From assembly GCA_037189525.1 (NCBI GenBank), contig JBBCJC010000001.1, forward strand, positions 448,001 through 512,000: 64,000 nucleotides of DNA, given 5' to 3'. The notes under the pieces are model-generated. The model saw only the letters and a program-made list of their open reading frames with translations. It was not told the DNA's origin and ran no database searches. This document shows positions 42,709-63,766 of the stretch, piece after piece. The translations under genes were made by a program, and so were the position numbers. The DNA comes from Gemmatimonadales bacterium (GTDB taxonomy: Bacteria > Gemmatimonadota > Gemmatimonadetes > Gemmatimonadales > GWC2-71-9). Position 1 is the stretch's first letter, and every line of letters starts with the position of its first letter.

Positions 42709-42715
42709 CAGGCGG

Positions 42716-42799
42716 TCAGCCGCGAAGCCAGAGACCGATCACGGCTGCGAGAACCGTGACCCAGCTGGCCACCAGCCAGCGGGTAAAAGTTGAGTTCGT
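42716..42799 (-). pseudogene. Collapsed remnant of the hendecad gene (copy 2)
   Basis: Encodes TRWLVASWVTVLAAVIGLWLRG*, joined to AAAGTTGAGTTCGT, which in copy 3 (44899-44912) lies before the repeats. Confidence 0.75.
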
Positions 42800-42888
42800 C
42801 ATTCGGGAATAACTCGGCGAGTTTTGCGCTTGCCGGGTTTTACCATGCCCGGTAGCTTGGGTACGTTTTCTTCCCGGGAAAATTTCCG

Positions 42889-45354: not shown

Positions 45355-46065
45355 CTATGCGGCCTTGTCATCGACGCTCATCCCAGGCAGCTGATCGGGC
45401 GTCGGCGCGGCTGGCTCGGCTCGGTCGCGCGGCTTGAGCGGTCCGGGCGCCTTGAAGGCGCTCAGCCAGGTCGCGAGGCGCGCCGAATCGCGGGCGTAGC
45501 GATGGCGGTTGAGTCCATCGAGCCGGCGAAGCAGGTTCATCATCTCCGCACCGACCGGGAACAGCTCCGCGCGGGCCTGAATCCGGGCAGCCTTCGACTC
45601 GGAAGCCTGGTGCGCATAGGACTCATACTCGGTGAGCAGCGCCGTCGCTTCGTCGATCATCCCGGGTTCGATCCCGAACGGCTGCACCAGCTCGAGGTGG
45701 GTGCGCGCGGCCGCGATGAGCGACTGGGCCCGGGTCAGAAATCCGAGCGCCGAGCCGTCCGTCGGAACCGATCGAAAGTCCTTGGCGAGCGCGGGGTGGG
45801 ATCGGGCGGCCTCCTGCCCGGCGCCGGCGAAGAACCGGAGGAGCCCGGTGCTCAGATGCTTCCGGATCGTCTCCTTCCGCATCACAGCGCGGGCGCGCGC
45901 CTGGTCGCGCTCCTCGCGGGTGCGGATCAGCTCCTTGGTGCGCTCGATCAGAGTGCCGAGCCGCTGCGTGATGGCCTCGGGCCCGGGGCCTTCGAACGGG
46001 TTGTTCCGGACGAACGCGAGCGATTCCTCCGCTCGTCCAACGATTCTGCGGAAACGCGACAGCAT
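45355..46065 (-). CDS. Hypothetical alpha-helical protein (236 aa)
   Basis: GAGGGAGG RBS before ATG 46065 and coding-like codon bias. Confidence 0.7.
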   Translation of the reverse strand: MLSRFRRIVGRAEESLAFVRNNPFEGPGPEAITQRLGTLIERTKELIRTREERDQARARAVMRKETIRKHLSTGLLRFFAGAGQEAARSHPALAKDFRSVPTDGSALGFLTRAQSLIAAARTHLELVQPFGIEPGMIDEATALLTEYESYAHQASESKAARIQARAELFPVGAEMMNLLRRLDGLNRHRYARDSARLATWLSAFKAPGPLKPRDRAEPAAPTPDQLPGMSVDDKAA

Positions 46066-46424
46066 GGTATCCTCCCTCGCCGTAACCGGCGTTCTGTGCA
46101 TCTCCGACAGAATGCTCTTCCGGATTTCTCGTGCCACATTTTCGGCCGCTTCGGAAATCGGCGGGGTTTGACAGCCTGACAGATCGGGCGCAAGTCGTTG
46201 ATTCGCTACGGGGTTAGGGTGCCGGCGAGGTGGTCGATTTCCGGCGCGGCAGGTCGGCAGGACCAGCCGACACGTTGATCGGTCAGTGTCAACGGAAGGG
46301 GACAGTGTCCCCAGGTCAAAGGACACCTGCGCACCGATCTCCTGGGGCACCCGAGTGCTCAGTGGCTCGCGGCAATGCTCGGCGAGCCGCGACTCGTGTT
46401 CGGTGACTCAGGGCGGTGGTATAG

Positions 46425-46800
46425 GTACCTGCGGCAGTGGTTCGGTCGTTCGCGGATGTGTTAGGGGGCTCACGGCGGCGGCCTCGTTGCCTGCGGCTTC
46501 GGTCAGGTTGTCCGCGGCGCCGGTCAGGTCAGGGAACGGTTCGTTTCAGGATCTCGCGGTGGGGGATACGTAACCCGCGGCGTTGGTCAGGTGACGGACA
46601 GGTGCCGTCACGCGACCCGAGGCGAGTGTCCGGGCATCCGCGGCAAGGGTTCGGGGGCTTGCGGCGGTGTTGGCCTGCCGGAAGCATTTGCTCGGTGAGC
46701 CGAGCCGACCGTCCAACGACCCCCGCGGGTTGTGCGGTTGCTCGCGGCAGCTGTCCCGGTGCTCGCGGCGAGGGCTCGGTTGCTCGCGACCGTACTCGAT
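46425..46800. repeat. Degenerate 21-bp periodic tract
   Basis: GCGG at 46431, 46452, 46493, 46514, 46556, 46577, 46640, 46661, 46744 and 46765. Confidence 0.65.
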
Positions 46801-46881
46801 GATCCAAGGCGATGACGTCGGAATCCACGGCGAGGGATCGGCTTCCCGCGCCTCGGCCTGGACCCCCGCGGAAGCGGCCGA

Positions 46882-46903
46882 TGTCACACCCCTGCCCCAA
46901 CTT
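46882..46903 (+). promoter_or_regulatory. PafBC-type (RecA-NDp-like) promoter motif
   Basis: TGTCAC-ACCCCTGCCC-CAACTT, 43 bp before the lipoprotein ATG. Confidence 0.55.
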
Positions 46904-46946
46904 CTCCGGTGGCCCATCACGATCATCCCTATCCGGAGGAAGACCC

Positions 46947-47447
46947 ATGGTTTCCCGCCATAGCGTCACGCTGTCGGCGCTGCTTCTCACCCTCAGCGGT
47001 TGTGCCACGATCGTCGGCGGCGGCTCCGCCCAGCCCGTGGCGATCCGTTCGACACCGACCACCGCAAACTTCATCGTCACCTCCAGTTCTGGTCTGCAGA
47101 TGGCCCAGGGCACCACGCCGCAGACCATCCGGCTCGCACGGAAGAATGAGTACCAGGTCGAGTTCACAGCACCCGGGTTCCAGCCGCAGAAAGTTGTGCT
47201 GTCACGAGGCACCAACGGGTGGATCTGGGGTAACCTGCTCGTCGGCTGGATCGTCGGCTTCGCGGTCGACTTCGCAACCGGCTCCGCCTACAAGCTCGAA
47301 CCGGCACTCGTGGAGATCACGCTCGTCGGATCGCGCACGGCCTCGGGCGAGGAACAGACCAGCGCCGTGGTCCGGATGCTCGATGGAAAGGGCCGCGTGA
47401 TCAGCAAGGCCGAGGTTCCACTGATTCCGGAGCAGGTAACGCAGTAA
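46947..47447 (+). CDS. Lipoprotein, PEGA-like domain plus hydrophobic hairpin
   Basis: LSGC lipobox, CATIVGG, STP...GTTP and WIWGNLLVGWIVGFAVDFATGSAYKL; GGAGG RBS. Confidence 0.8.
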   Translation: MVSRHSVTLSALLLTLSGCATIVGGGSAQPVAIRSTPTTANFIVTSSSGLQMAQGTTPQTIRLARKNEYQVEFTAPGFQPQKVVLSRGTNGWIWGNLLVGWIVGFAVDFATGSAYKLEPALVEITLVGSRTASGEEQTSAVVRMLDGKGRVISKAEVPLIPEQVTQ

Positions 47448-47549
47448 CGCGGAGCGAGCCATCGAGGGCCGCGCACATGGCGTCGCGCGACCCTCGAGCC
47501 CCTCCTCCCAGTACGAAGCCGTGCAAGGCGAGGAGGCCCATCCCGCTTT

Positions 47550-49112
47550 TCAAGCGGGCCTGAGCACCTCACGCCCCCGTCCTTCGAACCAGCTCCTCTT
47601 CTGGGTGTGGACCGGCAGGAGCCGCTCCGCATTGATCGTCCCGACGACCCACTCCATCCCAGCCGCATGAATGTGGCCGGAGGCATGGAACGGCCCCGCC
47701 TCCGCGCCTGGCAGGCCACCCACGCGTTTCAAATCCCAGAGGTCGAGCCAGGCAGTCAGGCGCTCATGATCGACTTTCTGCTCCTCACCTCGGGCCTCGG
47801 AACTGGAGTAGATGTAGGTACCACCGTTCGGTTCGATGTCGATCAGGTTGGTGATATCCCAGTAGGACAGGCAGAGGATGTAGTCACCTGGCCGACGGCG
47901 GATCGTGGCGGCATCGACGATTGCGTCGGCGAAACCCTCGAGCACCGGGGACTCCCACGCCCCGATCGAGGAGCGCTGCGCCCGGAGAATCCCGACGCCC
48001 GCGCCGGTCTTCGGGATGGCCGGATCGACGACGTGCATCTGTTCGAGCAGGTAGGCATCCTTGGTCGTCACCACGAGCCGGCGCCCGACTTCGGTGGCAA
48101 TCTCGTGGAAGCTGCGGAGACGCTCGATGTTACGGGCCGAGAAGTCGGCGACGACGAGGCCGGGCTCGCGGCGAACGACATCGAGGCAGGCCTCTTTGAC
48201 TTCCTGCTCGGTGGTCGGCTCCTTCGAGGAGAGGTTCGTACCCTCGACGATGAGCAGCGCGGGTTTGAGCGCGGCCATCTCCTCAGCCATCCGCCTGGTC
48301 CGCCAGCCGGAGTGGCCGTGGAGGCGGATGTCGCCGGTATAACAGATCCAGCCGATGGGGGTGTTGACCGCCCAGGCGCCGGAGCCGGGAATCGAGTGAT
48401 CCACCCGGAAGAAGCGAAGCTTGTCGGGGTCGAGTTTGCAGTGGTCGAACGCCGCCGGCTGGTACACAGTTTTGGGGCCAGGCACGCTGCCAAAGAACGG
48501 CTCCAAGGCGAGCTTCGCAGCGCGAATGGCGTCGTCGTGCTCGGCGATGAAATGCGGGCGGCCTGCGCGGGAGGCAGGCTTGACGGCTTCGAGCAAACCC
48601 GACTTGCCCACCGTCTTGGGCGCAACGTAGCAGTATTGCGCCTCCGGGCCGCCACCGCCGATGTCCTGCATTGCCTTGCCGATCAAGGCGGTCATCAGAC
48701 CGGTGTACACCGGAATCTCGGGCTTCAGAAAGCCGAGACAGCCGTTGTGGTCCTGGTGCGCATGGGACAGCAACACGGCGTCGAGACCATCGAGCTTGCG
48801 GTATGACGAATGCCCGTGATACCGGCTCCAGAGATCCGGCTCGAGGCGGAGGTCGTCGCGATAGATGCCCTCGACCGGCGGCAGCAAGCCCACCGCGAGG
48901 AAGTCCCGGAGGCCGACCGCGGCGCGCGGGCTCAGGAACTCATCGAAGTACTTCCCGTTCCGTGCGAAGCTGGTGCCGAAGTCGAGGAAATACTTCCGAT
49001 CGGCAAACTCGAGGAGAATCTTGTTGCCGCCGATCTCGCCGGCGTCTCCGTCAGCGCCGAGGCCGCCGAAGACCGTGACGGCCAGATCGTCACCTACGGT
49101 ATAGCGACTCAT
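47550..49112 (-). CDS. MBL-fold/beta-CASP nuclease, RNase J-like
   Basis: EIGGN, LDFG, SHAHQDH, VDHSIPG, YTGDIRLHG, EGT, HASGH and PVHT. Confidence 0.85.
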   Translation of the reverse strand: MSRYTVGDDLAVTVFGGLGADGDAGEIGGNKILLEFADRKYFLDFGTSFARNGKYFDEFLSPRAAVGLRDFLAVGLLPPVEGIYRDDLRLEPDLWSRYHGHSSYRKLDGLDAVLLSHAHQDHNGCLGFLKPEIPVYTGLMTALIGKAMQDIGGGGPEAQYCYVAPKTVGKSGLLEAVKPASRAGRPHFIAEHDDAIRAAKLALEPFFGSVPGPKTVYQPAAFDHCKLDPDKLRFFRVDHSIPGSGAWAVNTPIGWICYTGDIRLHGHSGWRTRRMAEEMAALKPALLIVEGTNLSSKEPTTEQEVKEACLDVVRREPGLVVADFSARNIERLRSFHEIATEVGRRLVVTTKDAYLLEQMHVVDPAIPKTGAGVGILRAQRSSIGAWESPVLEGFADAIVDAATIRRRPGDYILCLSYWDITNLIDIEPNGGTYIYSSSEARGEEQKVDHERLTAWLDLWDLKRVGGLPGAEAGPFHASGHIHAAGMEWVVGTINAERLLPVHTQKRSWFEGRGREVLRPA

Positions 49113-50005
49113 GCCAGGGCTCTCCGCACCGCGGTTCGATAGCGTTCCGGCGACACGACCTCGGCGTCCGGCCCGTGGTCGAGCACTCGTCGCACCAGCC
49201 ACGCTTCGTTCGCCACCGCCAGCTCGACCTCGACTCGGCCGTCGCCCAGCACCCGATGATTGGGATACCGGGCCTGGACCCAGCGCGCGATGCCCGGGGC
49301 GAACCGGACGGTCACGGTTTCCAGCACATCGGGCGAGGCGCGGAACAGGTCGGCGGGTTCGACGACCTCACGGTAGTCGGCGCGCGGTTCGAAGCTCCCG
49401 CCGGTGACGCGCACGGCCGACGCGCGATCGAGCCGGAAGTGCCGCCATCCTTCGGCGGTCCAGGCAATCAGGTAGACCCGACCGCGATACTCGACGGTCC
49501 CATGCGGCAGGATGCTCCAGGTCCGAACGGCCTCCTCACCTTCCCCGGCATAGTCGAGGGCAATCTCGCGGCGGTCCTCAACCGCTTGCTCCACCGTCCG
49601 TCGCATCGCGTCGGACTCGCCATACTCCTCCGCGGGAGACGTTCTGCCCGCCATTGCCCGGTCGAGGCGGTCGGCAAGCCGAGCACCGTCGGGATCGCCC
49701 ATCAGCGCGACCTGGAGGGCGCATCGCTCCATCGGGGTGAGCACGAGCGGGCGCCGGAACGGCCCGCCGCTCGAGACGCTGAGCTGATCGTCCTGCTGCC
49801 AGACCGAGAGACTCAGAAGCCAGTCGTCGGCGGAGTGCTCACCGAGGGCGGTGAGGGTCCGGATATCAGAGGCGATTGTCTTCGGCGTCACGCCGAGCGA
49901 TGCGGCGACCTCGGCCAGGGTGGCGGCCTCCTGTCCGCGGCGCTCCCGGCGGCCCAGTTCGGCCACCATCTGGACGATCCGGGTGAGTTGCTTTGCGGCG
50001 CTCAT
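49109..50005 (-). CDS. HTH-WYL-WCX regulator, PafC-like
   Basis: HTH LAEVAASLGVTPKTIASDI, FRRPLVLT, YLIAW...RHFRLDR and WLVRRVLDHGPDAEVVSP. Confidence 0.88.
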   Translation of the reverse strand: MSAAKQLTRIVQMVAELGRRERRGQEAATLAEVAASLGVTPKTIASDIRTLTALGEHSADDWLLSLSVWQQDDQLSVSSGGPFRRPLVLTPMERCALQVALMGDPDGARLADRLDRAMAGRTSPAEEYGESDAMRRTVEQAVEDRREIALDYAGEGEEAVRTWSILPHGTVEYRGRVYLIAWTAEGWRHFRLDRASAVRVTGGSFEPRADYREVVEPADLFRASPDVLETVTVRFAPGIARWVQARYPNHRVLGDGRVEVELAVANEAWLVRRVLDHGPDAEVVSPERYRTAVRRALA

Positions 50006-51045
50006 CGGTCGGCTCCGTAGACCGCGGCGACCTGTTCACGCAGTGCGCCCAGCTCGGCTGCGAGGGTGGCGGGTTCCTCGATGCGAAGCTTGCTACCGAG
50101 CGAGAGGGCCCAGCGGAGGAAGGCCGGCCTGTCGCGAACGGTCATTTCGAGCGTGGCACCTCCACTATCGGTCTGACCCACCAGTGGCCTCCCGAGCTTG
50201 CGATTGACCGCCCAGCCCGCGGCGGGACCTTCGATCCGGACCCGGGCGGCCGTGGCGGGGCCGCCGCCCCACTCCCAGGGCGCCCGGCCGATCAGGCTCC
50301 GGACGTCGAAATCCTTGCGGGGCTGGAAGTCTGCACCGAGCGGCTCGACCTCATCGAGACTGTCGACGGGAAGGATCACGGCGTGATCACGGTCGCGATC
50401 CCAGCCAGCACAGTACCAGCGGCCCCACTGAAACAGCAAGCCATAGGGGTCGAACCGGACCTGACCGGGCTCGGGCGCACCAAGGGACCAATGTCGGCAG
50501 GTTACCGCGCGGTTAGCCGTTACCGCGTCCTGGAGGGCGGCGAGGGCCTTGGCGGTGCCGGTACCGAGCGAGTTGGCGAGGACCCGCTGGGCAGCGAGGG
50601 GTTCGAGGGGGAGATCGAACTCGAGCTTTCTGCGGAGCGACCTGGCGGCGTCGGCCCAGCCGGTCTCGGGCTGCTGGGCGAGCCGGCGGGTGGCCCGGTC
50701 GAGGAGGTCGAGCTCGTCGGTCGAGAGCTCGAGCGAACGGAGCGACCCGTAGGGGCGTTCGGGGGCGGTTTCGCCGGCCAGCTCGAGCTGGGGCAGGTAG
50801 ATCCCTTCTGCACGGAGGCGATAGCCGGGGACGCCGGATTCGTCCCGGGCGGGGACGGAGTCGATCCGGATGCCGAGGGATTCCAGGTCGGCCTTGTCTC
50901 GCTCGAACTTGCGGCGGGCGGATTCCTCGTCCTGGCCCTGGTAGCCGCGGACCTTGCTGAAGATCTGGGCCCGGGTGACGCCGAAGCGGTGATGGAGGAG
51001 GAAGGCGAGGAGGTCCATCCATCGGGCGGTCTTTTCAGCAGTCAC
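50002..51045 (-). CDS. HTH-WYL-WCX regulator, PafB-like
   Basis: RWMDLLAFLL, RRKFERDKADLESLGI, GYRL, DPYGL...GRWYCAGWD and WALSLG; GTG start inferred. Confidence 0.88.
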   Translation of the reverse strand: MTAEKTARWMDLLAFLLHHRFGVTRAQIFSKVRGYQGQDEESARRKFERDKADLESLGIRIDSVPARDESGVPGYRLRAEGIYLPQLELAGETAPERPYGSLRSLELSTDELDLLDRATRRLAQQPETGWADAARSLRRKLEFDLPLEPLAAQRVLANSLGTGTAKALAALQDAVTANRAVTCRHWSLGAPEPGQVRFDPYGLLFQWGRWYCAGWDRDRDHAVILPVDSLDEVEPLGADFQPRKDFDVRSLIGRAPWEWGGGPATAARVRIEGPAAGWAVNRKLGRPLVGQTDSGGATLEMTVRDRPAFLRWALSLGSKLRIEEPATLAAELGALREQVAAVYGADR

Positions 51046-51108
51046 ACAGCGGCTTCCGGTAAATGGCGGAGTGGCGAGTAGGCCTTGTATCGATTGACTA
51101 TCACTCAG

Positions 51109-51130
51109 AATGTAGCGATCGGGTGTGACA
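51109..51130 (-). promoter_or_regulatory. PafBC-type (RecA-NDp-like) promoter motif
   Basis: Minus strand reads TGTCAC-ACCCGATCGC-TACATT, upstream of the PafB-like gene. Confidence 0.6.
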
Positions 51131-51176
51131 GCGATCCAAGCAACGAAAGACGTGACGGTCTCAAAGGAAGGATCAC

Positions 51177-54100
51177 CTACAGAAGCGGCCATGGATCGGG
51201 TATCTGATCGGAATCCCACGCGATGGCTTTCAGGTTTGGATGTCTTGGCTCATCCATAGCACGACCAATCTCCACTCTACCGAGCTCGATTCTGAGAAGG
51301 ACCTGCCTTGCACTTTCAGTTCGATTAGTGTCATCTAGGACTAAGGATAGCAACCTTTCACGAAGAGCATTAAAGGTACGCGGCACGATGGTATACGCCC
51401 CCCGGTCGCCGTACGGAAGATTTGTCGTCGAGGCCTCCTCCAGCAACTTTGACACCCCATAGGGGATGGGGTTCGGCGCTCGATCCCTGAGCAAGTCGCA
51501 TGCACCCAGAGCGGCGCCATCTCCTCCATGACGAAGGAGGATCCTACCCAAGAGGTCCCGCCCGTGCGGCGTATCGACTTCGTGAGCTTGTTGCGCAATT
51601 GTTGCGAACCGTCCGGGGTCACCGCCAATCATCCGGGCCGCCCCTCGACTGAGAGCGTCGTAGTAGTCATTCGTGCCGAGCGAGGTGCCTCCTTCGTCGC
51701 ATGCAACCTCGACTTCAGCTAGTACACATTGCCACCCTAAAGCGGATCTACTAACTGAAATCGCCTCGACGATGTTCGGCGCAAACCACGCCTTTCGCGA
51801 CGTTCTCCCGAGGATCTCCACCAACAACGACACCGCAGACTCCGCTCGGCACTGGCCAAGAATCCCGACAATGTCTCGAATATTGGTACCAACACGCTGT
51901 AAGTTTAGTCCGCGAATCATCGTTACGCCCGAGTCCGGGTCGTCTGACAAGAGCTGAACTGTCAAGCAGCGAACACCAAACCACCAGGGATCAGCACTTG
52001 AGCTTACTTGATCGATGCCAATTCGCCTGATAAGCCGGCCAACAAACTCTGTCGTTTCCTCAGCTGGCAGCCTGAACCCTTCTTGGAGCATTGTGACAAG
52101 GCCGTCAACTACACCCCACTCGCAACCGTCCACCGCACCGCATCGAAACAGCACCGGCAAGGCAGCCGCATGACGCATCCTTCCTAAGGCTCGGGCGCCC
52201 TCGCCCAGCCCATGTGGAAATGGCTCAGTCGCTCCATTTGCTCGCAGATCAAGGTGTTTAGACAAGGCCGTCATGATGAAGGGCGCGAAGGAAGCCGTTC
52301 TAGTGGATTGAACCGTACCATCAGGCATTCTACCCGCGTCCCTTGTCTCCCGCCTGCTGAATGCAAGGTCAAAATCACTTGCTCTGCGAAGCGATTTGTC
52401 TAACCCACCAAGCTCCGGCACCTCAATCGAGGCGAGCGCAGCGCTCGCATCTCCGAAATACTCTGGGTCGTCCAGTAGGCGGACTAAGTGATCAATCGCT
52501 CCTTCAGAGCGAAGCCGACGGAGAGCTCCGCAGTAATAGTTGGTCGTTGAGAAGCGCCCTCGTCCGCTGCCTTGTCGCTCCACGACCGCCTGACATCGAT
52601 CCCTCCTATCCCATTCCACAATCACCGTCTCATCACCGGCCTGACCGCACTCCGCCAACAATGTGGCCAACCTTGCCCGTTGGTGGCGCGGAAGGGAACC
52701 GTCTGCATCGTATCGCTCTCCGATCCCAAGCGTGAGCGCCCTTAGCCCCTTTCGAGTAGTCTCGTCGAGTTCCTCAGCCGCAGCCATCGGACCACTCGGC
52801 CCGACCAATCCCAGGACGAGGTCGATCTCAGCTAGGGCCTTAGGTGCGTTGCCTGGCCCTAAGACTGCGGCGGCCCGAACGGTCAGGGGTTGCTCTCGAA
52901 GCTCATAGAGGAGGCCCTCATCCGGACGACTCCCCGCCTCGTCGTCTGCTCCCACCCCGCTCTCACGGACTTCCCTAATTCGTTGGAAGACAATGCCTGC
53001 AATAGCGGTCGGGGCTATAGCCCACAGTGGGGCAAGCCGCCGATGCACCTCCACCTGGTTCAACTTGGCACTGACTACCTCATGACATATCCCCTGGATG
53101 TCTGACTCATCAATGAACTGTCTGAAGAATGTCCATTGATCGGTTAGATCATCACCCCCACGAATACGATCAATTGCGACCGCTCTCGCCCACTTGGGAT
53201 TCAGTGTTGCCAACGCTTCAAGGGTCGCTCCGCCCCGACGCTCCCCAGGGAACACGCTCGTGTAAGCTTCGAGCTCTGGGCCAAACTCGCGCCCCCCGAG
53301 ATCGAACAAGATCCTCACGAGATCAATCCGACTTGGTACGGATGGTACCCGTGCAACAACCTCCGCAATAGTGGGGCGAAGAGCCTCTAGCTCCTCCATC
53401 GGCAGCCACGCCACCAACCGCCCAGCGCTGGGTAGGTCCCACACATCAGACTCAGGACCTAGAAAAGATGCTGCCAGGCGACCCTCTCCAACAAACGCCA
53501 ACGCTTCGATGGCAGACGCCCTTGCTCCAACGTCCAGCACCCCGCGAATGAACTCGACCAGCTCTGGTAGCTCGGCGGGAACCCCGTGTCGGATCATCTC
53601 ACCCACCAGCAAGCTTCGCGGCGCGGGAGCAGTAAGCCTTAGTTCTTCACCCCAGTCGACGCCTAGCGATCGCAACGAAAGTTGCGGGAAGAGCCTCAAT
53701 GCGCGAAGCTGCACTTGCGGGTCGGGATGGGTAAGCTCCGGCCGCACTACGTCGGCTAGACCTGGCGCGCCGGTAGCGAGCATTCCCGCGAACGCATATT
53801 CCCTTTCTTCGTCTGACGAGCGGCTCCAGATCATACGTAAAAGCATTTCAATTCTCGGCCCAATATTTGACCACACGGCAGTGCCAGCAACCCGCGCGAG
53901 CGATGAAGCCGCAACAAGGTCAACCGTTGCCATCCGATCGATCAGGTCGACAACAATGCTACGGACCGGTCCGCTCCCTGAAGCGTTCCTTGCCCGCTCG
54001 CACAGCAGCAGCAACGCGTCGCCCCACGCCACCGCGTTGACGACCCTCCAAAGAAACTCCGAGCTACTTCCCCCGCCTTGAACACTGGACTGACGAACCA

Positions 54101-55634
54101 GCCAGTGCGACGCAAACCAGGACTGGAGCAACTCGTGGCGGAATCGGACTACATCTGACCCCTCAGTGCCCGGTTGAAGAACGTGATGGCGACGGAGTGC
54201 GGCAAGAACCTCCAAAGCGTCAGGAACTGCTCCGATAAGTGCACGGCCTTGCAGCACAGAGCTTGTTTCCGCTACGACGCTCCGCGCGCGCTCTAGCGAG
54301 AGGCTGGCGCCTCCTTGTTCAGCTATTGCTGCTGCGAGGTCCTCCAAGTAATGCCGATGGTAACCACGGCACACGTCAGCAAGAACGCTTACATGCTCAT
54401 GGCGCTCCTCAAGATTGATGATTGCTCCGAGAAGTTCGTCCGCGGACTTCGGAACGCCGCCTCGCTCAGCAGCAACGCTAATCGCCGCGCGCGCGAAAAG
54501 CGGAAGTCTGGTTAGCGCGTCCACCACATGATCACGATCCAATGCATCTGCCACTGAGTCTGCATTCTCGGTGAGCGACAGACGCGCAAGTCGACGCCGT
54601 TCGCCACGAGTGAGGGGACGGAGCGATAATGTCTCACCCCGCGGAAGGACAGGAGCATCGACAACCTCTCGCGTTGTGATGAGGACTGCAGCGTTATTGA
54701 CTCGACGCAGCAGAGTCCGCAACTGGAGATCAGCCGTGCTGCGCTTCGAATCCCAAATCTCATTCCAACCGTTCAGCAGAATGGCAACGCTGCCGGACGC
54801 ATCCAGCTCGACCAGTTCCTCTTCCGAGATGTCTAGCTCGGCCGAGACGTATTTTGCAATTGTGGCTTCCCCTGCGCTCCATTCGGCCAAAGATATGGCC
54901 ACCGGAACTGGCCCATCGGTGAGGTTCAGGATTTCGTCCAAAAGTCGTGCGAGTAGGGTTGTCTTCCCTGCTCCGCCGGGCCCAGTAACAACTAGCTGGC
55001 GGCCAACACGAATCGCAGCGGCCAATTCCGCCACTCCAAGACTTCGGCGTTCCGAGTCTGGGGACGTGATCTCACAGTTGCCGTCAATTGATCGCGGACC
55101 GTCATAGCCAACCGATTTTTGCCAGCGGCGGATACGATCTCCAGCGAGAGTACGGACGCGCTCGATTAGGGGAGTCTTAACTTCTCCTAGCTCAAGGTAG
55201 CGAGTGCCAATCCAAGCGTTGGCAGGCCGCTGCAACTCTGTCACCAAGCCCTCTCGACTGATAACCTCGAGGTCGTGCCCTAGCTCATCGCTTATTTCCT
55301 TCTTCCAGTTGTCAACTTTCAAGCGTTGCACTGGTTTTGCAGTAACAAAAACGACGATGTCTGGATTTACACCTCGCTCTCGAATTCTGCGGCAGTCATT
55401 CCTGACCTTGGTTAGCGTCGCCGTCAACGAGCAGGCGAGCGACACGCGCTTGCCAGCTTCGCCGACCAGCAAAGTAAAGCCATCCTCACCTCCATCGTGT
55501 TGCCATTCAGGCATCACAAGGCCGGGGAAGAGCCCCTTCGCAACCTGGAACGCCAACAGCTGAAAGTCGTTTGCGCGCCCGCGCTCCACAAGAAGGTCGA
55601 GGGCCGCAACGATCTCTTCGCGGCTATGCATCAT
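51177..55634 (-). CDS. STAND/NACHT NTPase with a putative restriction-endonuclease-like N-terminal effector and a helical-repeat C-terminus (NLR/Avs-like)
   Basis: DGGEDG N-terminal motif, Walker A GPGGAGKTT, LLNGWNE, LITTR, PLF and RFRHELLQSWFA; atypical codon usage. Confidence 0.8.
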   Translation of the reverse strand: MMHSREEIVAALDLLVERGRANDFQLLAFQVAKGLFPGLVMPEWQHDGGEDGFTLLVGEAGKRVSLACSLTATLTKVRNDCRRIRERGVNPDIVVFVTAKPVQRLKVDNWKKEISDELGHDLEVISREGLVTELQRPANAWIGTRYLELGEVKTPLIERVRTLAGDRIRRWQKSVGYDGPRSIDGNCEITSPDSERRSLGVAELAAAIRVGRQLVVTGPGGAGKTTLLARLLDEILNLTDGPVPVAISLAEWSAGEATIAKYVSAELDISEEELVELDASGSVAILLNGWNEIWDSKRSTADLQLRTLLRRVNNAAVLITTREVVDAPVLPRGETLSLRPLTRGERRRLARLSLTENADSVADALDRDHVVDALTRLPLFARAAISVAAERGGVPKSADELLGAIINLEERHEHVSVLADVCRGYHRHYLEDLAAAIAEQGGASLSLERARSVVAETSSVLQGRALIGAVPDALEVLAALRRHHVLQPGTEGSDVVRFRHELLQSWFASHWLVRQSSVQGGGSSSEFLWRVVNAVAWGDALLLLCERARNASGSGPVRSIVVDLIDRMATVDLVAASSLARVAGTAVWSNIGPRIEMLLRMIWSRSSDEEREYAFAGMLATGAPGLADVVRPELTHPDPQVQLRALRLFPQLSLRSLGVDWGEELRLTAPAPRSLLVGEMIRHGVPAELPELVEFIRGVLDVGARASAIEALAFVGEGRLAASFLGPESDVWDLPSAGRLVAWLPMEELEALRPTIAEVVARVPSVPSRIDLVRILFDLGGREFGPELEAYTSVFPGERRGGATLEALATLNPKWARAVAIDRIRGGDDLTDQWTFFRQFIDESDIQGICHEVVSAKLNQVEVHRRLAPLWAIAPTAIAGIVFQRIREVRESGVGADDEAGSRPDEGLLYELREQPLTVRAAAVLGPGNAPKALAEIDLVLGLVGPSGPMAAAEELDETTRKGLRALTLGIGERYDADGSLPRHQRARLATLLAECGQAGDETVIVEWDRRDRCQAVVERQGSGRGRFSTTNYYCGALRRLRSEGAIDHLVRLLDDPEYFGDASAALASIEVPELGGLDKSLRRASDFDLAFSRRETRDAGRMPDGTVQSTRTASFAPFIMTALSKHLDLRANGATEPFPHGLGEGARALGRMRHAAALPVLFRCGAVDGCEWGVVDGLVTMLQEGFRLPAEETTEFVGRLIRRIGIDQVSSSADPWWFGVRCLTVQLLSDDPDSGVTMIRGLNLQRVGTNIRDIVGILGQCRAESAVSLLVEILGRTSRKAWFAPNIVEAISVSRSALGWQCVLAEVEVACDEGGTSLGTNDYYDALSRGAARMIGGDPGRFATIAQQAHEVDTPHGRDLLGRILLRHGGDGAALGACDLLRDRAPNPIPYGVSKLLEEASTTNLPYGDRGAYTIVPRTFNALRERLLSLVLDDTNRTESARQVLLRIELGRVEIGRAMDEPRHPNLKAIAWDSDQIPDPWPLL

Positions 55635-55721: not shown

Positions 55722-58700
55722 TCAGTCGACTTCAAAGGAGTGAGTCCGGAAGTGCAGAGTACGACTATTCTCAGTTACCGTTCGCATAAGGGCCTCTGAC
55801 GCCCCGTCGGGCATCGCCGCCTCGATCTCAAGCGTAATACGGACCTGCGCCCGGACTAAGCCGTTTAGATGCGCAATCACTTCCTCTGCAACCCGACCAG
55901 CATCCCGGCCGACCCTTTCAGGATCAAGCTCAACTGTACCGTGGAACCGGGTTGGCCTCTTAGCAGACGGGCTCACCTCCACCTCATCGGCGGTGGTAGG
56001 TGGGGTGACGCCAGCCTGCCGAGTTTCAGATGGCTGCGGTGGCTGTCCGGTATCGTGCACGAGGTCCGCACCCATCTGCCTTCTAGCCACTGTTGCCACG
56101 ACGAGCAGCCCAGGATCATCCGGCCGAACCGCGACTTGCCGTCCTGCCTGCAGCCCGCGGTAACGCTCTACCTGCTGATCGAACGATTCGGCATACGCGA
56201 AGCTTTCGCTCCAAGTAATTAGCCCGATTCCAGATGCGATCGCATCCGTTAGAACGTCCGGCCCAGCCAACCTCGGGAGATAGAGATACCTCCCAAAGTC
56301 CTCGATGAGCTGGGAAATCGAAACGTGGTCACCCCGCCAGAGAGGGATTCGATCCAGCTCCATCCTGAGCCTTACCGCGCCCAAATTCGTGATCAGGTGC
56401 TCGCCGCTCTTGAGCTTCTTGCTCGCTCGTACGGCTAACGGCTCTGCTCCCGTGAGCTTGACCGCCTCCCACGCAATCGGATCGGTCGGTTTGGGCTGAA
56501 CAGGAACGAGCAGCCATTGGTAGGTTTCGGGCAACCGAGCCTTCACCACTGCCTCGGCAGCCTCTGACTGTGCCTTAGCCTGTCGAACTTGATGGGGCGA
56601 AAGCTGAAGCGTCTCTACATCGTCGAGAATCGTCCTCCAGGCAATGCAACGCCGGAGCCCCTCCTCCAGATCCTGCCAGCGAGTGCGGTCGGCGACGAGA
56701 AATACCAACGTGTTCCGATAAAGCCTGGGTGCGTTCCCCCGGGACTCAAAGACCGCCTTGGCAGCGATTTCCGCCGGCGTGTTACCATCTTTGGCGTACC
56801 ATTGTTCGGGTTCGAGTACTACAAGTCCCACCTCAAAGTCGTCGGCGACATCGTGGCCGGACTTGGGTAGTCGATGCACACGAGCGAAGTCGCCGGTCTG
56901 CTGAAGATCTCTGCGGAGCCAACTTTCGAGCTCCAAATGAACTTTGTCAGCATCTCGTTTCAGCTGCTCTGCCCGGTCCTCAGCCACCTTAGCAACCGTT
57001 GGCTGTACCGAGTACCAGAACCGCGGTTTGTCCTCATATAGGTAGGTCGCGGCGGCCGCAAGTCGGCGAAGGGCATCACCGAAGACGGCTGGTTGCTCAC
57101 CCGGAATCACACAACCGAGTTTGATCCAGCGATCTTCGATTCCTTTATTGGCCGCTCCTGCGGTCGGGGCGGAGCCCAAGTAAATCGTTCGGGCCACCCG
57201 GCGAGTCGCGTGGTACTTACCGAGGTTAGGAACCTCGCTGTCGATGCGGAGCGGCACCGACTGCGGTCCATCGACATCCTTTTCGATGATCGGGGCCCAG
57301 TTATCAGATAGATAGCGGGTCAGCTCAGATTGCACTCGCGGATCGTCGATCGAGAGGTGACAGGGCAGAACCATGGGGTTCCGATCGCTCTTCTCCCACA
57401 GGCTATGAATGACGGCCGCCATCAGCCTGAGTACACCCCGGGTGCGCTGAAACTTCACCAGCGTGCTCCAATCACCATACAGCCGGTCAAACACCTCGGG
57501 GTGAATCGGATACGCGTCCTTCAGACGTTTGTGGTACGCCTCTTTGCCGCATTCGGCCGGGAACTCTCCAGGCTGAGTACGGTAGAGGTCGTAGAAGGCC
57601 CGAGTAACGTTGTCTCGCTCGGTAAACTGCCTCCGTTCGAGGAGTGGCTCGAATAGTCGGCGGCGGACGATCTCGAATCCTTCCTCAGCGGTCGCCGGGC
57701 GCCACGACGACTCTACTCGGCCAACAACATTGCGGAGGCGCTCAAGCGCTTCTCGACCGCGCTGCCCACCTACCTCAACATCACTAGTTGCCTGGGTATG
57801 AGGTGAACCAGCTGTATCAGACGCGGGCAGCGAAATGACCAGCAGGCAATTCTTCGCGAGCTTGGCCGACTCCGTGAGCGCCTGGGCAAAACTGAACTGG
57901 GTTTCAAAGGTCCCGCCCGGCAGGTCGCTTTGATCATGCAATTGCCGTGCATAGGCGACCCATTCATCGATCAGGATCAAGCATGGACCATACTCATTGA
58001 ACAGTTCCCGGAGCATATCACCGGGACTCGTACCGCGTTCGTCATCGGCCTGCACTCGTTTGAACGCATCCTTACCACCTAACTGCCACGCCAGCTCGCC
58101 CCAAAGAGTTCGGACCACGGTACCGTCAGACTTGGTACTTGGATTTCCTGGGGAGATCTTGTTGCCCACCAAGACCACTCGTTTCGCCTTGATCGGCGCC
58201 GATGCTTCAGCGGCCTCGAGAACCGGCTCGAGTCCGGGGAACTCGGTGAGAGGGCGACCAGAGCACAGATGGTAGAGGGCCAACATCGAGTGCGTCTTAC
58301 CACCGCCGAAGTTTGTCTGGAGCTGCACAACGGGATCACCGCCCGCGCCAGTGAGCCGGCGAACTCCTCCCTCCAGAAGCCCATGCAGACTCTGAGTCAG
58401 ATACGTTCGCCGGAAGAACTCGACCGGATCCCGATACTCGTCGGTTCCTTCGCCGAGGTGGACCTGCCAGAGATCGGCCGCGAACTCGGCCTGCTGGTAT
58501 CGTCCACTCGCGACATCCCGATGAGGAGAGACGACCTCACGCCATGGTGTGAGGTTGTTTGCAGCCTGGCTTTCGATCGGCACCGAGGCGCTCTTCCGTC
58601 GCTCGCTCCTGGCCTGCTCGTCGAAATTGACCCGACGCAACTCAAGCTTAGCCTTGCGAACCTCGTCGGCCTGCTCCGCGGAAACTGCGGTCAGCAATCG

Positions 58701-59048
58701 CTCCGCCGAATCCAATGCCCGATCTGTGTCGTCACCGGAGAACTTGGCCTGATGGGCCCACCGGTTCCGAAACTCAATCAGTTCCAGCACGAGCGTCCGT
58801 TCCGGTCGGCCCAAGATGTCGGCAAAGACACGGCCCCAGACCTTGTCCATGACCGTGAGGATGATGGCAACATCGTCAAGGTTGGCAGCCTTCGCCGCAC
58901 CTGGACGCCGATCGCTCAGAGCCGCCTTCACTTCGGACTCCCACTGAGCCCCGAGCTTCGCTTTGAGTTCCCGCTCAACAAACGGGCGCAGCCCGTCTTT
59001 CAGAAGTTCGAGGACCTTGGTAACGCGTTCCTGATTCGTGATCGCCAT
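55722..59048 (-). CDS. Swt1-like HEPN + DUF499 AAA+ ATPase
   Basis: RNRWAH HEPN motif, EFAADL, LQTNFGGGKTH, ILIDEW, YPIHPE and FQRTRGVLRL. Confidence 0.92.
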   Translation of the reverse strand: MAITNQERVTKVLELLKDGLRPFVERELKAKLGAQWESEVKAALSDRRPGAAKAANLDDVAIILTVMDKVWGRVFADILGRPERTLVLELIEFRNRWAHQAKFSGDDTDRALDSAERLLTAVSAEQADEVRKAKLELRRVNFDEQARSERRKSASVPIESQAANNLTPWREVVSPHRDVASGRYQQAEFAADLWQVHLGEGTDEYRDPVEFFRRTYLTQSLHGLLEGGVRRLTGAGGDPVVQLQTNFGGGKTHSMLALYHLCSGRPLTEFPGLEPVLEAAEASAPIKAKRVVLVGNKISPGNPSTKSDGTVVRTLWGELAWQLGGKDAFKRVQADDERGTSPGDMLRELFNEYGPCLILIDEWVAYARQLHDQSDLPGGTFETQFSFAQALTESAKLAKNCLLVISLPASDTAGSPHTQATSDVEVGGQRGREALERLRNVVGRVESSWRPATAEEGFEIVRRRLFEPLLERRQFTERDNVTRAFYDLYRTQPGEFPAECGKEAYHKRLKDAYPIHPEVFDRLYGDWSTLVKFQRTRGVLRLMAAVIHSLWEKSDRNPMVLPCHLSIDDPRVQSELTRYLSDNWAPIIEKDVDGPQSVPLRIDSEVPNLGKYHATRRVARTIYLGSAPTAGAANKGIEDRWIKLGCVIPGEQPAVFGDALRRLAAAATYLYEDKPRFWYSVQPTVAKVAEDRAEQLKRDADKVHLELESWLRRDLQQTGDFARVHRLPKSGHDVADDFEVGLVVLEPEQWYAKDGNTPAEIAAKAVFESRGNAPRLYRNTLVFLVADRTRWQDLEEGLRRCIAWRTILDDVETLQLSPHQVRQAKAQSEAAEAVVKARLPETYQWLLVPVQPKPTDPIAWEAVKLTGAEPLAVRASKKLKSGEHLITNLGAVRLRMELDRIPLWRGDHVSISQLIEDFGRYLYLPRLAGPDVLTDAIASGIGLITWSESFAYAESFDQQVERYRGLQAGRQVAVRPDDPGLLVVATVARRQMGADLVHDTGQPPQPSETRQAGVTPPTTADEVEVSPSAKRPTRFHGTVELDPERVGRDAGRVAEEVIAHLNGLVRAQVRITLEIEAAMPDGASEALMRTVTENSRTLHFRTHSFEVD

Positions 59049-59051
59049 CGG

Positions 59052-62000
59052 CTACTGCTCCGGAGCCGTGAGGAGGTCGACTTGCTCTTCCTTTGCCTTC
59101 CCACCCTCGCGGGCGAGCCGCACGATCTCAGGCCAGCTCTGCACCAAGCCGTTGTAGGCGAGTGCCTCAGACGCGCGCTTCTTGCGCTCACACAGGGTGT
59201 ACAGGCGGTAGGCCAGCTCGCGGGCTATCTCGGCCTTGGCGCCGAGCTTAGCAACGAGCCCAGCCGCCGCGGCCTCGCCGCCGCCCGCGAGCATACGGAT
59301 CAAGTGGTGAACGATCTCCCACGCGGAGAGGCGCGGATCTGCAGCGGGGTCCCAGTCGGCGGGCAACTCTTCTGGTTTGAACAGCCGCACCTTGCCGCGC
59401 TTCGATTCGATGATGCCGGCCTCGACCATCCCGGCGACGCTTGTGACTTTGGACTTGGAAAGCTGCTCGGCCTTGCCGTACTCGCCCTCGTCGAAGCCCG
59501 ACTCCTCGAACCAGGTAAGTGCCCAGCGGCTGTCCGCATCGAAGTCGCCTTCCTGCTCAACCAGCGCCTCGTCGAGGGTCTGGTTGATGAGGGCCAGCGC
59601 CTCGCGCACGCTGAGCGGTTTGCCCTCGGCATCAAGTACCTTGGCGTAGCGTGTGTAAACCGCCATACCCGGCCCGATGGCCGCTTGTGCTAGATCCACC
59701 GGCGCGATATTGCCGCGCTGGAGGTGGGCGAGCGCCTGAGGCAGGTCGGCCTTAAGTGCAGTGACAAACTCGCGGCGGGTGGAGACCGGGGCATCGGCGA
59801 CACGCCGCCGGCACACGAGGATGATGCTTGAGGCGAGCGCGCCAATGGACTTCTTGAGATTTGCTGTCAACTCCGTTCTCATAGGCCACGTACCACTAAT
59901 GGCAAATCCAGCCTCGATGACTGCAGCCAGAAAGGTGTCCCATCCTGTGTTTGTTATCCCATCATCGGCGTCGCTCTCCGACTGCTTGAATGCGTAGTAA
60001 ATGGTGACAGGAAAGGCTGGATGAGCTTGCTCACCTAGACGGCGCATCGCCTGGGTCATGCCTGCGAGAAAGAACAACTCCGCCTTATCTTTGCCACCGT
60101 GACGGTGGGGAGCGGCGATCAACTCCTCGGCCTTCGGCACGGCGAGTGTTGGGAATAGTTCCGGAAAAACAGGCCGAAGCGAACGGCGTAGCCATACATA
60201 GAAGTAGTCTGATAGGTCCGCATAGCCGATATTGTCATAATAAGGTGGATCAGATGATACCACCCGATTGATGGACAATCGTGATGTAGCCGCGTCCTGC
60301 TGGAACGCCGCACCCTCGGAAGGTAAAGGGGGAAGCCTCTCGAGTACCTTGCCGACGGCATGGGATGTGATGCTAAACCCTCCTCCGGCTTCTGATAAGG
60401 GGTTGGCCTCAGCGTAATCCCACACCATCGGGATCGCTTGTCGCGCGAAGCCCTGAGTCAGGCGATCTGGATCCTTCTGCCAAGTCGCCTGTGTTGTGTT
60501 CGTAAGCGTGGCCTTGTCATGACAAAACGCGAGGTAAGTTGCAACGGCGTCCCCGTACGCGGCACCGCCAGCGCGCAGAACCTTCGGGTTGTCAGGGAAG
60601 CCCGCTTGGAGAGCGTCGCGCTCTACTTGTTCGCGCGCTTCCTGCACTAGGTCGGAGAAGGTTGTGAGTGCAACGAGCTGGCGCGCAGTAAATAGATCTC
60701 CGAGATTGTCCATTCCATAGACGGGCGGTTGGAAGTTCCGATGCTTCTTAGGCATCTCGCAGTCTGGCTTCCACTTTGGTGTGGCTTTGATAGCAACGGC
60801 TTCATGCTCTGGAGTTGGGGAAAGATAGAGTCGACCGCGATCCCCTTCAGTTACAACTGCCATCAAGCGCGCGCCCATACGCCCAGCTTTTCCCTCGGCA
60901 CGGATGTAGTCGTATCCTACCGGGACACCTGACATCAGGCAGCTGAAGGCCTTCCGCTTACCTGCGGACGTGCCGTCCTTCAATCCCGCGTTCTTCGGTA
61001 ATCCCACTTTAACCGTGAAATGATAGCTGCCGTTCTCAATCACCGGGTCCACGTACGCTTCCTTACCCACCTTGGTAGAAAGCATGAAGGTGGAGGCGAG
61101 CGGCACATCCACATCAGCGAAGGCCGGGTTCGGGCTCTTCACCGTGCGCGCCCAGAGCCAGGCAATCACGGTGAGCTTGCGCCCGACGTAGGGCTTCAGG
61201 TCTGGCCGCGTCTTCGCCATCTCCGCAGTGACCTCGACCTTCGGATACAGGTGCCCGATCCGCTTCTCAGCCTCGTCGCGCATCCATTGCCCGTAATAGC
61301 GCACGTCGTCGGCAAGACCTTGTGCGCCCTTCCACTCCCGAGCAATGAGCGACTTCTCTTTGCGCGCCTCGGGGTTTACCGGCGGCTTGCCCGCGAACTT
61401 CGGCGGGATCTCGATCATTGCCTTATTAATCAGCACTGCCACCGGATTCAGGTCGCTGGCGTAGCTCTCCAGGCCGAGCCGCTGCGCTTCGAGGGGCAGC
61501 GCACCGCCCCCAGCGAACGGATCGTGAAACGCAGGGAGCTTGTGCCGATCGAACAGCTCCTTCGCTTGCGGATGATCTGCATTGTCCGCGCAGGCGCGCC
61601 GCCAGCTCGCCCAGATCTCGTCGCGTGCAGCCTGCAGCACTGTCTCGTTGGTCGTGTTCTCCCACAGGACCAGATCTTCGATGATGCGAAAGAGCCGCTG
61701 GCGCTCGATGTCGGCCAGTATGTCGTCCAGCGTGGGCTGCGGTCCGGGCTCCGGCACGGCGAGGTTGGTGCCCGCTGCCTTCGCGGTGAGTTCGCGGGCT
61801 TCTTCCCACAGCTTCAGGCGGGCCTTGAGCGCTGCCTCAGCCTTCCGCTTGAGCTTCGCGTCCGAGCGCAGCGTGTCCACGTAGGAGGACGGGTCGTCCA
61901 CCATCTGGGCAAAGATCACCGCACGCGCCGCCGCCAACGGCCGCCGCGCCCACCACAGGTGCAGGGTGCTCGGGTGACCGTGGCGAATCGACTTTTCGCG

Positions 62001-62066
62001 CGCAGAAGCTATGTTGATGGCTTCTAGCGGGAGGGCGACCTCGATGAGCTTCTTGCTGGTCTTCAC
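59052..62066 (-). CDS. DUF1156 adenine-specific DNA methyltransferase
   Basis: [19 protein letters not shown] and [20 protein letters not shown]. Confidence 0.92.
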
Positions 62067-63766
62067 TCTGAGTCCTTATCCTCGGCTTCCAGATCCGCAG
62101 CGATGGTCACACCCGTTACGCGCTGAATCTCTTTCCACAATCGTGCTTGCCGCCACGTCAAGAACGCGTCGAAGTCATCCTTGAGCAGCGACGAATCGTC
62201 GCCCGCGGGCAAACCATGCGAGGCAAGCACCGGCTCGAAGGGGAACCCCGTCGTCCCCCGAATCTCCGCTAGATAGTCGGAGGGCGCGCGGTCACTGATC
62301 ACCTGGTTGGTCGTGCGGTCAATCAACGTGCGGTTGAGCACACAGTCGCGTGTCCTGGCGAGCCTAACACCACGGCGCTCGAGATAGGCGGCCGGGAACA
62401 CATGATGGTCGTCGATACCTTGGTCGGCCATGAGCTTGCCCGTAATCACGGCCTGGGTATGGAAGTCGCGGGCGCCACCGCCGAGAATCAGGTTGATGAC
62501 GCCGCGGTAGATCGAACGCTGGCGCGGCGTCACATCACGTAGTGCTCGCGGATCGAAGCGGAAGCTCTCGACCGACTCCGGCGCCGCACCTCCGGCGAGC
62601 CAAGGCAATAACTCGGTCACGTCCTTTGCCGACTTGCTGTTCGGCGCGCTCTCATAAATCTGACCGAAGACGGCACACCAGAACCACCGCTTGAGCTTCT
62701 CGCGCCGGGCACCGGCCTCCGCGGTCTTCGGATTCCCGCTGCGTGCGAGTACAGCGGCCAACGGCGGCAACATGGTTTGGTAAGGCACCCACTTGGGGAG
62801 CATGACCTTGCAGTCGTCGCGGAGAATCTCGAGACCCGTGGCAAGCCCGAGCACGACCTTATCCCACCACTCCGTGATGTCCGAGGCAGCGAGGTTCAGC
62901 ACGTCGCTGCGCTTGCATGAGGGGGCCTTACGGCTCGCCAATGAGATGCCCTGCAGCACGTAGTAGGCATCTACCTCGAAGTCCCCGATCACCGGATAAT
63001 CGGCCAGCGCCTTATCCCAGAGTGCGCGGAGGTTGATGCTCTGCGGCCAGAAGCGAGCAGTGAGCAACTCGAAAACGCTCAGCTTTACGCCGGTACGATT
63101 CAACGTCTCGAAAATCGTGCAGAGCGCGTCTGGCTCGGTCTTGTCCGAGAGCGTCACGACCGGGAAATGGTAGTCGTCGATAGCACGAATCCACCTCTCT
63201 TCGATGCTATCGAGCGCATCCTCGAGTGCGATGCGCTCCTTGTCCGCCAGTTTTCGCGCGACCTTCCGCCCCCACTGTCCGAAGCCCCCTGCGCCGCCCT
63301 TCAGCACCGACAACGGCAGCAGCAACTCATTTGCCTGCAGCTCGAAATCCTCGCGAGCCTTGGTCCACTTAGTGGTCGCACGCTCGTGGAAGATTGCCTC
63401 CTCGAAATCCGCACCATCTCGGAGCTTCCCCAGGTCCAGAAAATACCGATGTTCCCCAACACCGTAGAACGCCTGATAGAGCGATGTCAGACGCTGTTGA
63501 CCGTCGAGTACGAGGAAAGTGTGCTTTCCTCCACCGAGTGGTGGCGCTCCATCGAACTCGCGTGCGGCGAACACACGCTTCGCGTCCCGAACGCGCAGGA
63601 TGCTACCCGCTGGGTAGTTACTTGCGATCGAGACGATCAGCTCCTGCGTAGCACCCGGTTCCCAGACGAAGTCGCGTTGGAAATCGGGCAGTGCAGTCGA
63701 GCGGTTGTGAATCTCGGCCAGGAGCTCCTTGAGCGCACGCGGGTTGGTGTCTTCGAACAGGCTCAC
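62063..63766 (-). CDS. DUF262 (GmrS-like) protein with a C-terminal HNH-like region, GmrSD-like
   Basis: [27 protein letters not shown] and DHHVFP...N....N. Confidence 0.85.

Follow-up and report, generated by a model that had tools for sequence, protein, structure and literature searches.

We analysed a 64,000-base stretch of DNA from a Gemmatimonadales bacterium (the whole stretch is called the window below), in which a pair of WYL-domain regulator genes, a nuclease gene and a convergent lipoprotein gene lie between two copies of a promoter-like motif. In our judgement, the sequence comparisons probably describe a PafBC-type activator of TGTCAC-N10-YAnnnT promoters that would serve the lipoprotein gene as well as its own operon with the nuclease, and that in this copy is probably not triggered by single-stranded DNA (ssDNA) in the mycobacterial manner. 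The features concerned, including the helix-turn-helix (HTH) regulators, are as follows:

46882..46903, plus strand: site A, predicted lipoprotein promoter, TGTCAC (-26-type, 46882-46887)-ACCCCTGCCC-CAACTT (-10-type)
46947..47447, plus strand: predicted lipoprotein, 166 amino acids, lipobox LSGC, convergent to the operon
47448..47549, no strand: gap between the convergent stop codons, 102 bases, strong hairpins on both strands (z -3.35 and -3.24)
47550..49112, minus strand: predicted metallo-beta-lactamase/beta-CASP nuclease, 520 amino acids, Pfam metallo-beta-lactamase, EF2904/RNase J-like fold
49109..50005, minus strand: PafC-like HTH-WYL-WCX protein, 298 amino acids, Pfam WYL and WCX plus HTH_PafC
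50002..51045, minus strand: PafB-like HTH-WYL-WCX protein, 347 amino acids from the GTG at 51045, Pfam WYL and WCX
51130-51109, minus strand: site B, predicted pafB-pafC-nuclease promoter, TGTCAC (51130-51125)-ACCCGATCGC-TACATT

The original prediction, made from the letters alone, had described the two sites as sharing their start and a 10-base spacing, and both points are borne out: sites A and B open with TGTCACACCC, followed by six free bases and the YAnnnT hexamer. Site A lies 43 bases from the lipoprotein ATG, and site B 63 bases from the pafB-like GTG. The literature motif, quoted earlier as TGTCRG-N10-TA-N3-T, is corrected here to tGTCgg(N10)tA(N3)T (PMC8635444), with the same 22-base geometry. 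Relative to tGTCgg, the sites described here carry AC in positions 5-6, and positions 7-11 are additionally conserved. TGTCAC-N10-YA-N3-T occurs three times in the window against 0.23 expected, a count reached in 1 of 100 shuffles; the third match (8120-8099) is weak, below a matrix score of 11.6. When the 4.65-Mb genome was scored with a matrix of 17 sites taken from relatives, with none from the window's own genome, site A ranked first (24.4) and site B second (20.6), the next score being 18.2, inside a gene. The TGTCACACCC 10-mer occurs four times genome-wide, and among the 44 TGTCACASS 9-mers in this genome, NAnnnT follows at spacer 10 only in the two window sites. A promoter scan of positions 46300-51400 found no -35/-10 promoter. 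The loose pattern was not enriched at spacer 10 in the genome (19 hits; spacers 5-16 gave 6-28); the argument for the motif therefore relies on relatives, and a genome-wide regulon derived from the loose scan was dropped. The genome's third-best intergenic site (score 17.2; G000:C11:12911, minus strand, locus L094:4012) carries the TACATT hexamer of site B, with no same-strand gene called downstream.

A PafB-like protein was matched in 27 of 61 related genomes and, phylum-wide, in 41 of 151. In 15 of 30 related loci, NGTCAC-N10-YA-N3-T was present within 250 bases before pafB, compared with two antisense matches and two in the next 250 bases upstream; other spacers gave none at 6-9, 11, 12 and 14 and one at 13. 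Conservation upstream of orthologues, which the prediction had made a touchstone, was thus seen in half of these loci, and scanning for the motif gave no enrichment of the loose pattern in the organism's own genome and a conserved site among its relatives. The mycobacterial form TGTCRG-N10-TA-N3-T was also tried and was found upstream of pafB in none of the 30. Conservation stops at the edges of the 22-mer, with no conserved bases outside it in a set partly picked by the motif, and the idea that the motif is embedded in a longer repeat or a recombination site was rejected on this ground. Because of this partial motif selection, a recount was made in 47 loci chosen by pafB alone, in which NAnnnT followed at spacer 10 after 39 of 49 TGTCACASS. 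As a sequence feature, the motif is far beyond chance, and the relatives settle its reality.

All three genes of the proposed operon (pafB-like, pafC-like and nuclease) are present and are joined by both ATGA stop/start overlaps. The idea of a PafBC-like pair outside Actinobacteria likewise stands, in that two HTH-WYL-WCX paralogues, PafB-like then PafC-like, are encoded in one operon; their best solved relatives are PafB and PafC only, and no WYL domains were found in the genome beyond this pair. A database entry for the PafB-like protein has 338 amino acids. In mycobacteria, the PafB HTH reads GTC via R46/R50, and the PafC HTH holds sigma domain 4 (PMC8635444). The equivalents of R46/R50 in the PafB-like protein, R45/R49, are kept, and among 142 aligned rows, some of them duplicates of one protein, R46 is found in 139 and R50 in 141. 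In the alignment to PDB 7P5X, K5, R8, E42, R46, R50, K52 and Y76 of the PafB HTH are kept, and S40, A43, R56 and W70 are not. A tryptophan at position 163 of PafC is common to the six nuclease-bearing genomes among 22 rows and may be only a mark of kinship. PafB was searched for in viral contigs, and none was found there. A 705-amino-acid protein (P0007) with WYL and metallo-beta-lactamase domains, 67% identical to the nuclease, is a possible PafC-nuclease fusion or a frameshift artefact.

In the WYL domain of the PafB-like protein, the residues equivalent to R181, R208, R211 and R214 of Mycobacterium smegmatis PafB are V, V, P and S (V196, P226 and S229 in its own numbering for R181, R211 and R214), and the net charge of the WYL-B stretch is -3 against a median of +3 over 141 rows. 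Y211 and R219, equivalent to M. smegmatis Y196 and R204, are kept. In M. smegmatis, ssDNA binding is abolished in the PafB mutants R211A/R214A, R181A or Y196A, and does not require the PafC arginines in vitro (PMC11804915). Mycobacterial-type nucleic-acid sensing, as had been proposed for this locus, is not supported for this copy, given the replacement of all four PafB arginines, and their loss suggests that it probably answers another signal. The simplest reading is that the activator still reads its promoter and that ssDNA entry at PafB would no longer switch it. WYL domains can bind other ligands, such as cyclic di-GMP in the case of MbpR (PMC11880434). In the family as a whole, R211 and R214 are both kept in 134 of the 142 rows, so ssDNA sensing is likely general. 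The eight exceptions comprise five rows in one clade with the window protein (support 100/100 in a tree of 39 of the 142 rows; 56-79% identity), G041 and its duplicate (R214 only) and one truncated sequence. A tie between arginine loss and the nuclease was considered and rejected: R211/R214 are intact in G017, L118 and G169, all of which have the nuclease.

The alternative that survives best is an ordinary ssDNA-sensing PafBC, in which ssDNA from damage or phage replication would still switch on the pair by way of the WYL domain of PafC and those basic residues that are left. The PafC-like protein keeps R188, R191, R194, Y178 and W242 (R191/R194 being M. smegmatis R201/R204), and the two retained PafB residues and the family-wide arginines point the same way. 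In addition, mitomycin C still elicits activation by the Moraxellaceae regulator DdaA, in which the first arginine is lost (PMC12392091). The M. smegmatis mutants, with their dispensable PafC arginines, and the replacement of all four PafB arginines here with the accompanying charge difference argue against this alternative, and we regard it as unlikely, though worth keeping in view.

Loss of the sensor residues could also mean that the regulator is a blind relic that is not activatable, with left-over sites and with expression that is basal or due to read-through from the upstream island. Only two strong sites are left in the genome, and the NACHT gene on the same strand ends 46 bases upstream of site B without a clear terminator (z -1.65). 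Selection speaks otherwise. Compared with G005, which shares the arginine loss, the ratio of nonsynonymous to synonymous substitution rates (dN/dS) was 0.17-0.28 for PafB, 0.12-0.22 for PafC and 0.08 for the nuclease, with all parts between 0.08 and 0.28 and the PafB WYL domain at 0.24. By these comparisons, the PafB-like protein is under purifying selection despite its arginine loss, as are both regulator genes at a synonymous distance near 1. The HTH is the best-kept part (80-83% identity), both sites are near-consensus, sites persist in both genomes, and G005 keeps a strong site after its nuclease gene. A relic is thus improbable.

Several observations limit or weigh against the PafBC-type activator that we favour. 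In its favour, a stricter pattern gave 63 matches in the 61 genomes, with 50 in the 27 pafB-positive and 13 in the 34 pafB-negative genomes and 20 in the 61 for the reversed control; this pattern, however, was shaped on the sites of pafB-positive genomes, 7 of the 50 hits lie directly before pafB, and the related genomes are not independent in the 50-versus-13 tally. Among 22 new genomes, a site scoring at least 12 lay within 250 bases of pafB in only six (one antisense and one further upstream in the same loci; four more loci had a site at most 1.5 kb upstream). The self-site is therefore common in near relatives and not universal, and self-activation, as judged from such sites, is not general. 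The mycobacterial polymerase contact PafB W70 aligns to E69, in a variable column and an uncertain loop alignment, and PafC D62 aligns to a serine, in a gapped pairwise alignment of an uncertain loop. Beyond the present group, the nuclease mostly occurs without the regulator: of 35 metagenome loci, many of which are short, only four had a WYL pair nearby and one had the motif. Four PafBC-like pairs at Anaeromyxobacter and delta-proteobacterial loci had no such site near pafB. Finally, strong-looking sites were found in G006, G022, G028 and G172, draft genomes in which no WYL domain was found; in G100, also a draft, the pafB match is N-terminal only. As a separate observation, the PafBC-like genes of Anaeromyxobacter and a delta-proteobacterium (L037-L040) share a conserved upstream gene and spacer, without the Gemmatimonadota motif.

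The four genomes with sites and no detected WYL domain also favour a different explanation, namely that some other regulator uses the motif (a protein of CRP type or an alternative sigma factor) or that it is a cassette recombination mark, and that it only travels with the WYL pair. Sites often follow a stop codon directly and precede unrelated genes in arrays, and TGTCACA resembles the ECF41 -35 element and a CRP half-site. Several features of the sites speak against this. They have no second half-site upstream and no element 16 bases downstream, and their second element is a housekeeping-type -10 at the exact PafBC spacing, with counts near control in genomes without pafB. A further 19 loci (281,877 bases) contained 26 sites with scores of at least 15, compared with 12 in 4.65 Mb of the window's own genome; 23 of the 26 were intergenic and 24 were aimed at the next gene, as judged with the analysis's own codon model for gene calling. 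Across 194 loci, 89 of 106 distinct sites had a same-strand open reading frame (ORF) within 300 bases downstream, and 16 of these 89 ORFs start 6-8 bases past the -10 hexamer, with none at 0-5 or 9-13. Such clustering at the presumptive transcription start is the pattern expected of leaderless mRNAs from a -10 element. We consider the other-factor explanation slightly more improbable than a relic. The earlier suggestion of an own promoter motif before the pafB operon, and with it likely autoactivation, accords with this conserved -26/-10-type site. Back-to-back motif pairs before divergent genes were observed at L036:3963/3999, L064:4003/4044, L080:992/998 and L194:10572/10591.

Repression of its own promoter by the pair, like the defence-island WYL repressors BrxR and CapW, is very improbable: the site does lie upstream of the pair's own gene and an Hma system is adjacent here and in G015, but the site is non-palindromic, shares no bases with a -35 element and is laid out like an activator-dependent promoter, and the only best solved relatives, PafB and PafC, point elsewhere.

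Based on these data and on the mycobacterial structure, we propose a plausible mechanism for the PafBC-type activator. The two WYL genes would give PafB-like and PafC-like proteins that likely form one activator. The PafB HTH would bind the GTC element at about -26, and the housekeeping sigma factor would open the -10 element with no need of a -35 element, as in sigma adaptation. The site before pafB could then provide positive feedback. Across Gemmatimonadota, the site may act as a portable switch placed before exchangeable genes for nucleic-acid processing, conflict and the envelope, and the result would be an inducible defence or repair response beside LexA/RecA. A response to ssDNA would be expected of most copies, in which the arginines are retained. 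We are least sure how the activator of the window's clade works; its trigger might be a different ligand or the intact PafC side by itself, or it might need no ligand. More tentatively, sigma adaptation could be a mobile, self-amplifying switch beyond Actinobacteria with a 22-base plug-in promoter, and the rebuilt PafB site of the window's clade (basic to neutral or acidic) could answer a non-ssDNA signal, which might be a product of the co-transcribed nuclease or an input that both share.

The regulon is compact by site scoring, with two units in this genome, as predicted: only two sites score above 20. Both recA and lexA are present and have no site (best upstream scores 1.5 and -4.4, respectively), and no site was found at the own-genome homologues of the relatives' targets (UvrD-like, TM0106-like, outer-membrane and immunoglobulin (Ig)-like proteins). 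In relatives, the first gene after the site is pafB in 20 cases, a member of the PEGA lipoprotein family in 7 (4 of them at loci fetched by the lipoprotein search) and a DUF2779 nuclease in 6. Ig-like secreted proteins (5), TY-Chap3-like proteins (5), outer-membrane barrels (3), AddB-like nucleases (3) and the beta-CASP nuclease (3) follow, with Smr, VWA, AAA, ARPP-1 and others as rarer cases. Behind pafC, relatives carry AddAB-like pairs, DUF2779, TM0106-like genes and Hhe-like helicases. One motif-led gene of 1544 amino acids (L207:11502-16133) encodes a PD-(D/E)XK domain and then a UvrD domain, and is perhaps an AddB-AddA fusion. The nuclease and the envelope protein, which the prediction had named as the outputs, do recur, but not as fixed outputs; judged by these predicted targets, they are real recurring targets and exchangeable cargo, two of many outputs.

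The nuclease was modelled with a predicted local distance difference test score (pLDDT) of 91.5. Its best structural match was EF2904 (PDB 2AZ4; template modelling (TM) score 0.64), followed by RNase J proteins at 0.54-0.62, with which it shares the metallo-beta-lactamase plus beta-CASP fold. The HxHxDH motif and the later His/Asp metal motifs were invariant in the 63 aligned of the 120 homologues listed, and His502 at motif C would fit RNA-acting beta-CASP enzymes. The RNase J-like label holds for the fold and not for family membership, the scores being far under the cut-offs (TIGR00649, 55.5 against 400 bits; NF047419, 58.2 against 820) and the nearest relative being the uncharacterised EF2904; by the same two models, no RNase J family member scored above cut-off in the genome. 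Unlike EF2904 and RNase J, to which its structural identity is 17-20%, the protein ends soon after the last catalytic His. It is also patchy in distribution and occurs in defence-gene surroundings on Thermus, Rhodothermus and Thermococcus plasmids, where homologues of 36% identity have toxin-antitoxin, restriction, Avs2 and cas genes as neighbours; some copies adjoin HmaA-like, methylase or BrxL genes. Among the 61 related genomes it is present in six, behind pafC in four and alone with its own site in two, and nowhere else; G169 has a fifth pafC-nuclease operon. We read it as a putative defence-island nuclease recruited under the switch.

The lipoprotein model suggests a PEGA-like beta-sandwich with a hydrophobic helical hairpin, and its homologues match Pfam PEGA. 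A Foldseek search gave no match at E 0.001, and the best Z score was 8.6, to transthyretin-like sandwiches, a common arrangement. Homologues occur in 14 genomes, with the site upstream in six (G000, G003, G017, G100, G159 and G172), which supports the convergent lipoprotein as a predicted output. In the three-contig assembly of G159, the lipoprotein site and pafBC are on different contigs. The gap between the convergent stop codons was not picked by the terminator scan and is a possible two-way terminator without a T-run.

The likeness to mycobacterial and actinobacterial PafBC (PDB 7P5X, 9FND and 6SJ9; PMC8635444, PMC11804915 and PMC6789036) lies in the tandem HTH-WYL-WCX arrangement, PafB then PafC, and, by sequence only, in a GTC element and a -10 element 10 bases apart, spanning 22 bases with no -35. 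The differences are several. The present pair comes from a Gram-negative phylum, and its motif is TGTCAC-AcCc, not tGTCgg. In a genome that is 98% complete there was no PF03136 match for a Pup ligase, unlike the mycobacterial Pup-proteasome link. A site lies before the pair's own operon, whereas mycobacterial pafBC is described as not damage-induced in the accessible text of PMC7617703 and PMC8223512. Two strong sites compare with about 150 genes, recA and lexA are not included here, and the PafB ssDNA arginines are missing in this copy, as W70 seems to be. At the sequence level, the system is therefore PafBC-like in promoter recognition and differs in three respects, namely the ssDNA arginines, the link to the proteasome and a global regulon. 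DdaA resembles it as a WYL activator over repair and anti-phage genes with a changed ligand-site arginine, but is a single protein that binds about 50 bp upstream of the start, is stated not to use sigma adaptation and replaces SOS (PMC12392091), whereas the window's genome keeps lexA and recA. The adjacent WYL pair MXAN_1359/1360 of Myxococcus xanthus, also outside Actinobacteria and named as PafB/PafC homologues, is reported as LexA-controlled and unstudied further, with no motif or regulon described in the accessible part of that paper (PMC12288472). DriD, SiwR, BrxR and CapW are likewise HTH-WYL-WCX nucleic-acid-sensing regulators of damage or defence genes; they are homodimers, BrxR and CapW are repressors, and the accessible accounts describe no -26/-10 hybrid promoter for them.

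PafBC-like domain architectures outside Actinobacteria are already known (PMC6789036 and PMC7617703), and sigma adaptation has been described in mycobacteria and proposed for other Actinobacteria (PMC8635444). A search of freely accessible literature found no report of a WYL pair or a PafBC-type promoter in Gemmatimonadota, or of this motif. If our reading is true, the association of a PafBC pair with a conserved -26/-10 promoter in Gram-negative bacteria would show the mechanism to be portable and would give exact promoters to test. The motif could also serve as a guide to candidate defence and repair genes under one switch in a poorly studied soil and water phylum, including the beta-CASP nuclease, DUF2779, AddAB-like pairs, TY-Chap3, ARPP-1 and the PEGA lipoprotein. 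The natural loss of ssDNA-essential arginines in a gene under selection would offer a ready test of ligand change in WYL domains.

The location at the edge of a defence island was correctly anticipated. The adjoining genes in the window are as follows, with HmaA just beyond the window edge:

51177..55634, minus strand: NACHT/NCAB2 protein, last gene of the defence island, not a motif target
55722..63766, minus strand: HmaC (DUF499), HmaB (DUF1156 methylase) and GmrSD-like, not motif targets

This upstream island, of lower G+C, also includes a HipA-like gene, Thy1, CARF6-like hits and a methylase. The G+C content of the WYL module is 0.65-0.70, which is host-like, compared with 0.53-0.64 in the island, and the matrix scan found no strong site before hmaABC or other island genes; the regulator is therefore probably not part of the adjacent island, and seems to border rather than rule it. 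Hma adjacency to the WYL pair also occurs in G015, and published work on Hma and beta-CASP proteins (PMC12839542 and PMC8501993) serves here as background only.

On the other side of the module, a minus-strand ORF at 45355-46350, divergent from site A, has no Pfam, NCBIfam or PADLOC match, and a homologue (35%) lies near pafBC in G003. Two paralogous minus-strand genes (40520-41032 and 44401-45036) consist of 33-base (11-residue) repeats with shared flanks, and a 127-base piece of the same repeat-gene end is found at 42694-42820. Between these two repeat genes lie a gene of beta-lactamase type and another that resembles copper nitrite reductase, the latter with a cytochrome c domain. Past the window, a low-G+C operon (L181:7969-13898, on G000:C1) encodes a methylase, an ORC-CDC6-like ATPase, a CARF6-like hit and a Thy1 thymidylate synthase, and is a possible DNA-modification defence system.

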